DNA of 64,000 nt, taken from IMG/VR virus record IMGVR_UViG_3300008107_000012. One strand, given 5' to 3'. The position numbers were made by a program, and so were the translations under genes. The notes beneath the pieces were generated by a model, which was not told the origin of the DNA, did not search any database, and saw only the letters and a program-made list of their open reading frames with translations. The stretch is from a virus. Positions 1,401 through 63,764 of the stretch are shown one piece after another; positions within the stretch are counted from its first letter, which is position 1, and every line of letters begins with the position of its first letter.

Positions 1401-2254
1401 TGGCACAACCATCTACCCGACAAGAATTAATTGATTACTGCAAGAGAAAACTTGGTGCTCCAGTTTTAGAAATAAATGTTGCAGATGAGCAAATTGAAGA
1501 TTTGGTAGATGATGCAATTCAATTTTTTCAAGAGAGACATTTTGATGGGGTATACCCAACTTTTTACAAATATAAAGTAACCCAGAATGATATTGATAGG
1601 GGTAGAGCAGGTTATGGAGGAAGTTCAACTACTTCTGCTGGAATTTCAACTACAACAGTGACATCAAATATAGTTGGAACTGCTACAACATTTACATACT
1701 ATGAAAATAGTAATTATTTGCAGATGCCTCCTAACATTATTGGGGTAAATAAAATTTTTACCTTTGACGGAGCAAATACAATTACCCATAATATGTTTAG
1801 TGTTAAATATCAGTTATTTTTGAATGATATTTACTATTGGGGAACTACAGAACTTTTAAGTTATGCTATGGTTAAAACATATTTGGAAGATTTGGATTTC
1901 CTTTTAAATACACATAAACAAATACGATTTAACAAAAGACAAGATAGATTATATTTAGATATAGACTGGGGATCTGTAACTAAAGATCAATATTTTGTAA
2001 TAGATTGTTATTCAACATTAGATCCAAATGATTATTCTAGAGTTTGGAATGATTCCTTTCTAAAACCATACTTAACTTCATTGATCAAGAAGCAATGGGG
2101 TCAGAATATGATGAAATTTACTGGAGTAAAACTTCCAGGTGGAGTTGAGCTAAACGGTAGACAAATGTACGATGATGCTCAAAGAGAAATTGACATTTTA
2201 ATGGAGAAAATGTCAAGCACTTACGAACTTCCACCTCTAGATATGATAGGTTAA
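1400..2254 (+). CDS. gp13: neck protein gp13
   Basis: N-term R.ELIDYC.R.LGAPVLEINV; C-term LPGGV.LNGRQ.YDDA. Confidence 0.92.
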   Translation: MAQPSTRQELIDYCKRKLGAPVLEINVADEQIEDLVDDAIQFFQERHFDGVYPTFYKYKVTQNDIDRGRAGYGGSSTTSAGISTTTVTSNIVGTATTFTYYENSNYLQMPPNIIGVNKIFTFDGANTITHNMFSVKYQLFLNDIYYWGTTELLSYAMVKTYLEDLDFLLNTHKQIRFNKRQDRLYLDIDWGSVTKDQYFVIDCYSTLDPNDYSRVWNDSFLKPYLTSLIKKQWGQNMMKFTGVKLPGGVELNGRQMYDDAQREIDILMEKMSSTYELPPLDMIG

Positions 2255-56027: not shown

Positions 56028-56115
56028 ATTCTCACGGGTGTCGGGGGTCCAAACTCCGAGTAATTCCCAACCTTCCCATGCCTCTCAACGATGCACAAAC
56101 AGGGAGGTCTCTTAT

Positions 56116-56688: not shown

Positions 56689-56779
56689 GGGAGAGTGCCT
56701 ACTGTCGGCAATACGTGTAGGAGCGGTCTGTAAAACCGTCACATAGGAACCATCGGGGGTTCGATTCCCTTCTCTCCCA
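56689..56779 (+). tRNA. tRNA-Tyr(GTA) with enlarged D arm
   Basis: Loop ctgtaaa; D arm cctac-14 nt-gtagg. Confidence 0.85.
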
Positions 56780-57011: not shown

Positions 57012-57085
57012 GGGAACATAGCTCCAACTGGTAGAGCACAGGATTGAAGATCTTGGTGTTGTCGGTTCAAATCCGACTGTTCCCT
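57012..57085 (+). tRNA. tRNA-Phe(GAA)
   Basis: Loop ttgaaga. Confidence 0.88.
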
Positions 57086-57211
57086 CTTGACCTTTATGGT
57101 CACGGAGATTCACTTCCTCCGTTATGAAACTTCGGTTGGTTAGTGATAGGTTTTTCAGTCCGAAAACTGAAACTGGTAGGTTGTTGATATCGACTCCTAC
57201 CTTGATGGAAT

Positions 57212-57265
57212 TAGAACAAGAGATTCATACCCTCTATGTCGGTAGTTCAATTCTACCCACTGCCT
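57212..57265 (+). pseudogene. 3' two-thirds of a tRNA with CAT anticodon; 5' acceptor strand missing
   Basis: tagaac-a-agaga ttcatac cctct-atgtc-ggtag ttcaatt ctacc-cactgcc; no ggcagtg partner at the expected place. Confidence 0.7.
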
Positions 57266-57266
57266 T

Positions 57267-57338
57267 GTGTCGTTAGCCTAGTGGTTAAGGCAGTAGTTTG
57301 TGGAACTACCTAGATGGGTTCAATTCCCATACGACACC
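57267..57338 (+). tRNA. tRNA-His(GTG)
   Basis: Loop ttgtgga; C73. Confidence 0.9.
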
Positions 57339-57340
57339 CC

Positions 57341-57412
57341 GCCCTTATAGCTCAGTGGTAGAGCAACTCACTAGTAATGAGTAGGTCGTTGGTTCAAATC
57401 CGACTGGGGGAT
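57341..57412 (+). tRNA. tRNA-Thr(AGT)
   Basis: actca ctagtaa tgagt; G1:A72 mismatch. Confidence 0.8.
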
Positions 57413-57445
57413 CTCAACTATCTGGAATTTCCAGATAGTTCAAAT

Positions 57446-57523
57446 GTCTAGGTGGCAGAGTGGTCGAATGCGGTGGATTGCAAATCCACTATTATCGCGT
57501 GGGTTCAAATCCCACCCTAGACT
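57446..57523 (+). tRNA. tRNA-Cys(GCA)
   Basis: Loop ttgcaaa; U73. Confidence 0.9.
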
Positions 57524-57528
57524 CCTAC

Positions 57529-57600
57529 TCCAGAATCGACTAACTGGCAGGTCAACACACTTTGACTGTGTTTGTCTAGGTTCGAATCCTAGTTCTGGAA
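57529..57600 (+). tRNA. tRNA-Gln(TTG)
   Basis: Loop ctttgac; U1-A72. Confidence 0.88.
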
Positions 57601-57621
57601 TTGCTTCTTTTAGAAGCATCA

Positions 57622-57732
57622 ATCTTGTCTGGACAGCGGTTCGATTCCGCTCACTTCCATTCTTGGGGGTGCCATGGTTTTCGACAGGCAGGAGGGTTCT
57701 GAGAATAAATCTCAACAACATCGTATCTTTCC
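57622..57732 (+). ncRNA. ssrA: circularly permuted (two-piece), minimised tmRNA-like gene with truncated tag
   Basis: Acceptor piece (GAC-agcgg ttcgatt ccgct-cacttcc-A) precedes the 5' piece GGGGGTG-ccatGGtttTCGACagg; G3:U70 and A73; tag-like codons NNIVSF. Confidence 0.8.
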
Positions 57733-57804
57733 GGGATAGTGTAATTGGTAGCACGGAAATCTCCAAAATTTCTAGTTAGGGTTCAAGTCCCTATCCCTTC
57801 GCCA
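57730..57804 (+). tRNA. tRNA-Trp(CCA) with the three terminal acceptor pairs broken
   Basis: Loop ctccaaa; G73 and CCA intact; 5' tcc faces 3' ttc. Confidence 0.75.
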
Positions 57805-58147
57805 AATTATAATGCAATTTGAAATGACAATTAGCACATAAAATTTGACACTTATTAATTTCAGTCATTATTCTTTCTTTTGACCAACCTTGGTTTATTG
57901 TTTTAGAAATTTCTATCTCTTTTTCTTCTGGGTTTTTATGGTGAAATTGAATTGTTGCTGGGTGATTTTCTCCACACATTTCGCATTCTAATTGTTGTTT
58001 GTAATTGCTAAACCATTCTCGTAATTCTTGTTTTCTTTTTTTTACTTTATCGCAGGATTTTGGTTTGTTATTGGCATACCATTTTCTTCTTGCTTCCCTC
58101 CTTCTTTCTTGATTGTTGGGATCTGATAACCATTCTTTTGACGGCAT
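57791..58147 (-). CDS. HNH endonuclease, antisense to the tRNA array
   Basis: CEMC...FHH.NP..K...KC..LCANCH..LH; own TATAAATA on the minus strand at 58173-58180. Confidence 0.85.
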   Translation of the reverse strand: MPSKEWLSDPNNQERRREARRKWYANNKPKSCDKVKKRKQELREWFSNYKQQLECEMCGENHPATIQFHHKNPEEKEIEISKTINQGWSKERIMTEINKCQILCANCHFKLHYNLAKG

Positions 58148-58199
58148 TTTTATTATTCAAAGTCTCCTAAACTATTTATAAGTTTTGGATACTATACTT

Positions 58200-58274
58200 G
58201 CCCTGGTAACTCAGTGGAAGAGTGCTTCGCTACGAACGAAGAAGACGGGGGTTCAAATCCCTCTCAGGGTGCCA
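58200..58274 (+). tRNA. tRNA-Arg(ACG)
   Basis: Loop ctacgaa; encoded CCA. Confidence 0.92.
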
Positions 58275-58311
58275 TTTCAAATCTAAATATCAACAGAGGT
58301 GTGATAGGAAA

Positions 58312-58782
58312 ATGGAATTAGTAGAACCAAATTCAACTATACTAGTTCTGAACAGTTCTTACGAACCACTACACTTCACTAATTGGAAACGTGCAATTGT
58401 TTTGCTCTTCAAACAAAAAGCAAAACTCATCTCCAAGAGAATTATTCGTTTGGTAAATTATGTGAAAATTCCATTTTCCTATGGAAGATCCGATTACCCA
58501 ACGAGAGCACTCATCTATAAACGGGATGACCACGAATGTCAATATTGTGGGTCTAAAAATGATCTTACAATTGATCACGTAGTTCCTCGTTCTAAAGGTG
58601 GACAAGATACTTGGGAAAATCTAGTTGCTTGTTGTACTTCTTGTAATCTTAAAAAGGGGAATAGTCTTCTTAAAGAAACTAATATGGTTTTGAAGAGAAC
58701 ACCAGAATCTCCAATTAGCCGAATAGTTCTTGATCTTCAGAAAACAAAAGTTTCTGAATGGAAAGATTATTTGTTTCAGTAG
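58312..58782 (+). CDS. HNH endonuclease (McrA-like)
   Basis: LVLN.SYEPL, RD...CQYCG, LTIDHV.PRS.GG...WENLV..C..CN..KG. Confidence 0.9.
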   Translation: MELVEPNSTILVLNSSYEPLHFTNWKRAIVLLFKQKAKLISKRIIRLVNYVKIPFSYGRSDYPTRALIYKRDDHECQYCGSKNDLTIDHVVPRSKGGQDTWENLVACCTSCNLKKGNSLLKETNMVLKRTPESPISRIVLDLQKTKVSEWKDYLFQ

Positions 58783-58902
58783 GACAGATTCAGAATTGGT
58801 ACATAGGGCTTGACGTATTACGGAAAATGCTCTAATATATAAATTGTTAGAGGTTGAGTCCCTGTTACATCCTTATGAGGTGTACCACACTCAATCCATC
58901 AT

Positions 58903-58977
58903 CGTGGGGAAGTGTAGTGGTTGCACAGGAGTCTCATAAGCTCCAGGTTGGTGGTTCGATTCCACCCCCCGCCACCA
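58903..58977 (+). tRNA. tRNA-Met(CAT), initiator-like
   Basis: Loop ctcataa; C1:C72 mismatch; encoded CCA; lacks the three consecutive G-C anticodon-stem pairs. Confidence 0.8.
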
Positions 58978-59050
58978 GCCCTTGTACTCCAACGGTAGAG
59001 AGGGTGGACTTAGAATCCATACAGTGTAAGTTCAAATCTTACCAGGGGCA
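58978..59050 (+). tRNA. tRNA-Leu(TAG) with short variable loop
   Basis: gtgga cttagaa tccat; A73. Confidence 0.85.
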
Positions 59051-59088
59051 CTTGACAATCAAACTTAAATAGTTCATGATTGTCTCAT

Positions 59089-59160
59089 GCGGATTTAATT
59101 CAGTGGTAGAATGGCTGCCTTCCAAGCAGTTCGTCAGGGGTTCGAATCCCCTAATCCGCT
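59089..59160 (+). tRNA. tRNA-Gly(TCC)
   Basis: Loop cttccaa; U73. Confidence 0.92.
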
Positions 59161-59180
59161 CTGAACCTTCGGGTTCTTAT

Positions 59181-59473: not shown

Positions 59474-59545
59474 CTATCGGTAGTCTAGTGGTCAGGACAG
59501 GCAGACAATGCACTTGGAGTTCGGGTTCGATTCCCGACCGGTAGA
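59474..59545 (+). ncRNA. tRNA-like RNA lacking a canonical anticodon arm
   Basis: Acceptor ctatcgg/ccggtag, D arm and T arm intact; anticodon region cannot form a 5-bp stem with a 7-nt loop. Confidence 0.7.
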
Positions 59546-59549
59546 CCTA

Positions 59550-63627: not shown

Positions 63628-63754
63628 AACTTATACTGGTGGAGTCAAATATGACCCTGTTTGGTTTCTTGCTTCCTCAAAGAGCAAGTGGTGCGGATGG
63701 GACTCTCTCCCGCCTGGTTTCCAATTTCCAGTCAAAGAATTGGTGGCGTGCATG
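63609..63754 (+). ncRNA. manA-like structured RNA
   Basis: gtc..gac hairpin + ctggt module, then two TTTC(Y)NNNTTCC..AAAGANNNNGTGG units joined by GTGCGGATGGG..CCCGCC, ending GGCGTGCATG; recalled consensus only. Confidence 0.65.
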
Positions 63755-63764
63755 AAAGACCTAT

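Follow-up and report, generated by a model that had tools for sequence, protein, structure and literature searches.

The tmRNA of mycobacteriophage DS6A consists of the tRNA-like domain only (PMC4131195, PMC11915505). Two-piece tmRNAs are carried by Melnitz and by pelagimyophages, with 53 two-piece calls made in phage genomes (PMC9004378). The Rfam model available for rearranged genes of this kind, RF04321 (tmRNA_permuted), spans the tRNA-like domain alone (PMC11915505). By means of Rfam and ARAGORN, we find complete permuted tmRNA genes of 300–350 nt in S-CAM3, S-CAM1 and S-SSM7, with tags such as ANTSDSAANNIVAFSRSTVAA*, and a further full gene is present in S-CRM01. Their positions are as follows:

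L001 (S-CAM3), 1443-1757: full permuted tmRNA gene
L002 (S-CAM1), 1441-1755: full permuted tmRNA gene
L003 (S-SSM7), 1443-1794: full permuted tmRNA gene
L094 (S-CRM01), 1765-2074, minus strand: full permuted tmRNA gene

The records of these four phages show hypothetical-protein CDSs, or nothing at all, over the tmRNA genes. A degenerate pattern of the core retrieves 42 IMG/VR contigs, nearly all of which hold full genes located in tRNA arrays. The full-size type closest to the locus studied here (L013, L018, L029 and L034) has the tag ANNIVSFRRTAVAV*. We describe here a far smaller permuted tmRNA, found in the virus record IMGVR_UViG_3300008107_000012; the stretch of 64,000 nt that was analyzed is referred to below as the window.

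A miniature permuted tmRNA in the tRNA array of a cyanomyovirus

The best DNA matches of the window, about 79% identical, are the freshwater Synechococcus phages DSL-LC03 and S-SRM01. ARAGORN predicts 23 tRNA genes between 56116 and 63044, of which tRNA-Gln ends at 57600. The source is a freshwater cyanomyovirus, and the tmRNA lies within its tRNA array. The parts of the tmRNA, all of them on the plus strand, are the following:

57602-57618, +: hairpin between tRNA-Gln and the tmRNA (MFE fold; aligns with the first hairpin of RF01851)
57623-57631, +: 5' strand of P2a (RF04321 alignment, MFE fold), followed by the linker GAC that leads to the T arm and is part of the acceptor piece, 57623-57659
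57635-57651, +: T arm (5/5 pairs, structural parsing)
57652-57658, +: acceptor 3' strand (7/7 pairs with 57665-57671)
57659, +: discriminator A73, which closes the acceptor piece 57623-57659
57660-57664, +: spacer TTCTT of 5 nt, to be removed (5-6 nt in the members of the mini family described below)
57665-57671, +: acceptor 5' strand and start of the coding piece, with G3:U70 plus G4:U69
57672-57684, +: D-loop-like segment of 13 nt (RF04321 alignment, MFE fold, parsing)
57685-57693, +: 3' strand of P2a (9/9 pairs with 57623-57631)
57700-57714, +: small hairpin tgaga/ataaa/tctca in the place of PK1 (folds; RNAalifold columns 86-89/95-98)
57711-57713, +: presumed resume codon CTC, inside the hairpin 57700-57714
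57711-57734, +: tag codons 1-8, L N N I V S F R (alignments to intact relatives)

The acceptor half precedes the 5' half, from which it is separated by the 5-nt spacer, and the 9-bp P2a links both pieces, as corresponds to a circular permutation. The tRNA-like domain is complete, with a T loop of the GGUUCGAUUCC type, G3:U70 and A73, and an MFE fold of the region recovers P2a, the T arm and the acceptor stem. The preliminary description of this DNA had noted a P2-like pairing of 6 bp; the pairing is real and extends over 9 bp. No CCA is encoded at the 3' end of the acceptor piece. PK1 is absent between P2 and the resume codon, with a hairpin of 4–5 bp instead, and the resume codon is CTC versus the usual GCN of tmRNA. 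The hairpin upstream of the acceptor piece (57602-57618) has counterparts of other sequence at the same place in contig L091 and in further members of the family. After CTC, the frame reads AAC AAC ATC GTA TCT TTC CGG and then enters the body of a tRNA-Trp, where it ends at TAG 57777-57779, giving RDSVIGSTEISKISS*. It has no stop of its own: codons 9-14, TGA, helix 5 and the terminal hairpin are gone.

Model searches gave a divided answer. Over the whole window, RF04321 scores 48.5 bits versus a gathering cut-off of 47 (E 1.7e-6), a match that rests on model positions 27-111. With RF01851 (cyano_tmRNA) the score of 56.6 bits lies under the cut-off of 70, and ARAGORN called no tmRNA at 57622-57804. 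The Rfam check that had been proposed came out positive for the permuted model, and negative for the cyanobacterial model as well as for ARAGORN. The two negative outcomes are what a chance tRNA-like sequence, or a tRNA pseudogene, would lead one to expect. Against such an origin stand the permuted order together with G3:U70, A73 and P2a, the sequence identity to full permuted tmRNAs of the S-CAM3 and L013 type, and the NNIVSF tag frame, common to the window and its full-length relatives. Both full-size and mini-family relatives refute it, and we give this origin practically no weight. The claim that the locus holds a permuted, much-reduced, phage-borne tmRNA therefore stands: the sequence is as had been described, and its core occurs in dozens of phage contigs.

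The tRNA-like core of the window matches those of S-CAM3, S-CAM1 and S-SSM7. As in full-size cyanomyovirus and cyanobacterial tmRNA, the locus has an NNIVSF core and sits in a tRNA array, with T arm and acceptor stem identical or nearly so to those of L013 and S-CAM3. Unlike them, its D-like loop is 1 nt longer and the 3' half is absent. Compared with the L013 type, the outer P2 and about 24 nt of the PK1 hairpin region are missing, CTC stands where L013 has GCA, and homology disappears after codon 8. We considered the extra U in the D-like loop as a possible lesion and rejected it, since 12–13 nt are normal in the mini family.

A family of two-piece tmRNAs without PK1

Besides the window, 32 metagenomic cyanophage contigs contain a two-piece tmRNA of about 175 nt that lacks PK1. 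The set is made up of L091, 29 contigs from an IMG/VR search with a motif of hairpin plus resume codon, and L110 and L122, which came from a search with the tag end. The intact gene is organized in two pieces:

Acceptor piece: P2a 5' strand, T arm, acceptor 3' strand, A73
Coding piece: acceptor 5' strand with G3:U70, D-like loop, P2a 3' strand, hairpin, 14-codon tag

A complete 14-codon tag with TGA is present in 32/32 of these contigs (LNNIVSFRRTAVAV, in one case ANNIV...), and the tag of the intact family ends RTAVAV. The presence of a full tag and stop in relatives, which the preliminary description had proposed to check, is thus established. All 32 likewise have a terminal hairpin and a helix 5 whose loop contains the stop codon, both of them missing from the window. 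In L091, 114 nt are identical to window positions 57620-57733, after which the tag continues with CGC AGG ACT GCT GTT GCC GTT TGA, followed by a long helix and then the terminal hairpin. The GAGA-loop-UCUC hairpin, with CUC right after P2a, is identical in the window and present in 31 of the 32 others, with one loop change in L110, bearing in mind that for 29 of the 32 contigs the search pattern itself demanded the hairpin. The placing of the resume position at a CTC within a gaga/tctc hairpin, as initially proposed, is borne out by this comparison. L122 (3205-3387, minus strand) is of the mini type and lacks PK1; its resume codon is GCG (Ala) and its short linker is another one, which suggests that miniaturisation preceded the switch to CUC.

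G3:U70 and A73 are invariant throughout the family, and double changes preserve full pairing of the acceptor, the T stem and P2a. The acceptor, for instance, occurs as CACTTCC/GGGGGTG, CATCTCC/GGGGATG and ATACTCC/GGGGTAT. RNAalifold returns the same helices plus helix 5 and the terminal hairpin, with compensatory changes at 17 pairs, and helix 5 is among the helices that show them. Differences in the tag are nearly all synonymous. Because stem changes are compensatory, tag differences near-synonymous and tags complete, we consider the family to be under selection; to judge from its sequences, it is a real, selected, pseudoknot-free two-piece tmRNA.

ARAGORN misses these genes. None was found among the GenBank phages of the collection searched, nor is the family found in the literature searched. 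An exact 40-mer of the window's tRNA-like domain has no match in IMG/VR, and patterns combining a domain of the window type with a short linker retrieved nothing from IMG/VR or from genome contigs. In metagenome contigs, the same patterns gave L091 as the one true match; those in L089 and L090 fall in an AT-rich coding region and were discarded as chance. As phage-encoded permuted ssrA genes of aquatic myoviruses, the mini tmRNAs resemble the two-piece genes of marine phages (PMC9004378). Those marine genes are of the alphaproteobacterial type and were found by ARAGORN (PMC9004378), whereas the mini family is cyanobacterial and missed by ARAGORN.

The window copy compared with intact alleles of the locus

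With the mini genes of L091, L048, L099 and L135, the window copy shares the order of the pieces, P2a, the 13-nt D-like loop, the hairpin with CUC and tag codons 1-8. It differs from them in lacking the end of the tag and in being fused to tRNA-Trp. The following features are relevant to this comparison:

57733/57734: deletion junction, with 1-nt (G) microhomology; 144 nt of L135 missing
57730-57804, +: tRNA-Trp(CCA), nt 1-3 replaced by tag sequence (ARAGORN)
57791-58147, -: HNH endonuclease gene between tRNA-Trp and tRNA-Arg(ACG) (weak Pfam HNH match)
58312-58782, +: second HNH endonuclease gene, which flanks tRNA-Arg(ACG) together with the gene at 57791-58147

To compare alleles, we used the public assemblies containing the exact product of the HNH gene 57791-58147, which stem from many samples. 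L135 (GCA_031545195.1), taken as its reverse complement, agrees at 100% with two segments of the window, 57266-57733 and 57733-59162, and has 144 extra nt between them. These hold what the tag lacks in the window (codons 9-14 and the stop), followed by helix 5 and the terminal hairpin, the tRNA-Leu(AAG) gene and nt 1-3 of tRNA-Trp. The exact identity of L091 to the window also stops at 57733, with the full tag following in L091. Seven contigs (L132 and L134-L139) have the same tRNA-Trp allele after an intact mini-tmRNA, tRNA-Leu(AAG), a 2-nt spacer and GTT. The window junction was found in no other fetched contig, the fused form being 1/33 of the family copies. About 12 contigs share the tRNA-Trp allele and its HNH neighbor; the fused form is absent from them, and all keep tRNA-Leu(AAG) and the tRNA-Trp 5' end GTT upstream. 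Two ORFs that span the junction, 57440-57766 (minus strand) and 57444-57779 (plus strand), had no recorded match in an exact look-up and are taken as spurious.

A 144-bp deletion with 1-nt microhomology would thus have removed the tag end, tRNA-Leu(AAG) and nt 1-3 of tRNA-Trp. The earlier suggestion that the end of the tag had been lost by deletion finds direct support in L135, which is identical on both flanks and holds the missing sequence. As both flanks are letter-identical to intact alleles, the deletion, if real, must be very recent. We consider the window copy to be a recent, real deletion allele without selected function, either neutral or mildly harmful, with a probability of about 0.7.

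The locus is variable in other assemblies as well, among them sister contigs that share the HNH gene and the tRNA-Trp allele. In L133 (Ga0114346_1082209), an independent deletion has taken about 100 nt out of the tmRNA, so that the T arm and acceptor 3' strand adjoin the 3' untranslated part. In L140 and L141, tRNA-Gln directly precedes tRNA-Leu(AAG) with no tmRNA between them, and DSL-LC03 and S-SRM01, the nearest isolates, have no tmRNA. Most likely, the locus is often lost in phages of this group, and the window allele represents one such loss.

A second illegitimate junction lies 520 nt upstream of the tmRNA junction:

57206-57265, +: first 6 nt of tRNA-Ile(GAT) fused to tRNA-Met(CAT) from about nt 19; junction at 57211/57212

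By blastn, 607 nt are missing at 57211/57212 with respect to L091, and L134 is 100% identical to the window up to 57211 and then contains the missing 607 nt. The gap comprises Ile(GAT), Val(GAC), Ser(GCT), Ser(GGA) and the 5' part of Met. An earlier mention of a "beheaded" CAT tRNA is consistent with this tRNA-Ile(GAT)/Met(CAT) fusion.

These observations also bear on whether the phage itself carries the deletion. The real phage could be L135-like, with the 144-nt gap arising from a chimeric read or from the path of an assembler through a mixed population. An artefact of this sort would account for a junction that occurs only once, with flanks matching intact alleles letter for letter, and for a second deletion-like junction in the same array; a putative third one, in nrdA, had been flagged in an earlier reading of the sequence. 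Moreover, internally deleted, truncated tmRNA genes have been reported from older metagenome-assembled genomes (PMC11915505). Against it, a single nucleotide is shared at the junction and there is no repeat of k-mer length upon which an assembler would collapse. In addition, L133, L140 and L141 are other deletion alleles from independent assemblies, so real deletions do occur at this locus. We regard the artefact as rather unlikely and keep to the recent deletion as the preferred reading.

tRNA-Trp and its neighbors in the array

The tRNA-Trp body (57733-57804, 72 nt from G4 to CCA) is intact and is identical in L059 and L061 after GTT/GTC. The Rfam tRNA model matches it over model positions 4-67 with 47.9 bits. 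Nucleotides 1-3 of the window copy (57730-57732) are TCC versus GTT/GTC in relatives, and face a 3' TTC. G1-C72, which is conserved in all tRNA-Trp relatives and is the single terminal pair of this tRNA, is lost. Hence, the reported loss of the first three acceptor pairs holds as to the replacement of nt 1-3 and needs correcting as to the pairs, the sole pair lost being 1-72.

The cyanophage tRNA-Trp(CCA) family (L046-L088 and L099:3088-3162) has a 5' GT[TC]GG strand that faces 3' CCTTC. Positions 2-71 and 3-70 form a U-U or C-U mismatch in all relatives, and G1-C72 and the pairs 4-7 covary. Pairs 4-7 with 66-69, G73 and an encoded CCA are traits of the family. The acceptor-stem defect is conserved, and 5' repair or editing may be one idea to explain it. 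We also considered a remote 5' acceptor strand: in MFE folds of the window and of L099, the G-rich end of the P2a 3' strand and the start of the linker pair with the 3' end of the tRNA. As the tRNA-Trp family is also found far from any tmRNA (L059, L061), this pairing of a G-rich with a C/U-rich strand is treated as chance.

The HNH gene next to tRNA-Trp (57791-58147) is 43% identical to annotated HNH endonucleases (tblastn, E 9e-21). It is absent from L099 and L061, where tRNA-Trp and tRNA-Arg are adjacent. Breaks made by homing endonucleases may underlie the deletions in the array.

Identity to L091 alternates along the array between 99–100% (57079-57211, 57620-57733 and 58197-58247) and 75–85% (tRNA-Cys, tRNA-Gln). 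Such alignments show the array to be a mosaic, put together by fine-scale recombination among phages that co-occur. Other elements of the region were recorded. A tRNA called His, with anticodon ATG, at 59474-59547 scores 40.7 bits with the Rfam tRNA model and has a counterpart in L133 (71-144, minus strand). At 56689-56778, a long stretch resembling a tRNA matches the tRNA-Sec model only, with 32.7 bits, below the cut-off; its counterpart in L091 lies at 2481-2569. An abiF RNA motif (56072-56108, Rfam 49.1 bits) is located immediately before the array's first tRNA, and a wcaG RNA motif is present at 63660-63757 (Rfam 102.5 bits).

Predicted fate of the truncated RNA

As the tRNA-like domain is untouched, its processing, charging with alanine and binding by SmpB are probably still possible. 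With the domain and P2a preserved, an RNase P cut at G 57665 and 3' trimming with CCA addition are plausible, as are alanylation through G3:U70 and binding of the host SmpB. The message would fare differently. Were RNase P to cut before tRNA-Trp, the coding piece would end after about six codons and would itself be a non-stop template, with no 3' hairpin to protect it; otherwise, reading would continue into the tRNA body and stop at TAG 57777, which is there by chance. A message lacking its own stop would be expected to cripple tagging. In all, a single event would have damaged three RNA genes: the tmRNA, tRNA-Leu(AAG) and tRNA-Trp.

The preliminary description had read the fusion as a functional, reduced RNA, which would either rescue ribosomes by means of the tRNA-like domain plus a short message, adding the degron-less tag (A)LNNIVSFRDSVIGSTEISKISS, or serve as a decoy for SmpB and AlaRS and so weaken trans-translation in the host. 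In its favor, the deletion has spared the tRNA-like domain and P2a as well as the resume codon and the context upstream of it, and an in-frame TAG is available at 57777-57779. There is precedent in the TLD-only tmRNA of DS6A, and TLD-only RNAs have been reported to inhibit tmRNA (PMC4131195, PMC11915505). However, the fused form is conserved nowhere among relatives, and a strain identical on both flanks retains the whole gene. One and the same deletion also costs the phage tRNA-Leu(AAG) and the G1-C72 pair of tRNA-Trp, the read-through frame, stop included, arises by chance from the sequence of the tRNA body, and helix 5 and the 3' hairpin have been lost even though they are conserved in 32/32 relatives. 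We judge a functional RNA of this kind to be improbable. The idea of a degron-less fusion designed to spare phage proteins, or of a decoy, finds no support: the fused form is a singleton and young, with no signal of selection.

As in DS6A and in organellar tmRNAs devoid of a CDS, the domain is intact and the message is not a normal tag (PMC4131195, PMC11915505). Unlike the tmRNA of DS6A, which is one-piece and a stable feature, the window copy is a fresh deletion that keeps eight tag codons and has an intact sibling at strain level. The TLD-only class comprises stable, conserved genes that hold hardly anything beyond the tRNA-like domain, and the window copy, a singleton in which eight tag codons remain, falls outside of it. 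An intact tRNA-like domain transcribed from the tRNA operon could, by analogy, titrate SmpB. That the truncated allele is alive, with an operon-expressed, alanine-accepting domain that titrates SmpB or appends a non-degron tail running into the tRNA-Trp body, seems to us a slim prospect. If true, it would be a natural, freshly arisen degron-less tmRNA variant that segregates beside the intact allele.

Discussion

The fused form shows no sign of selection or of being maintained. The degron-less tag is best understood as one of several deletion alleles and not as a new device. The mini family is of more interest than the window copy: its members dispense with PK1, measure about 175 nt, have a leucine codon at the resume position and are missed by both ARAGORN and RF01851. 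The family is common in metagenomic cyanophage contigs, including those from lake and reservoir samples. In near-identical arrays the tmRNA may be intact, 3'-truncated, internally deleted or absent, and these states constitute a natural allelic series with which one can ask what a phage tmRNA is for and to what extent it can be dispensed with.
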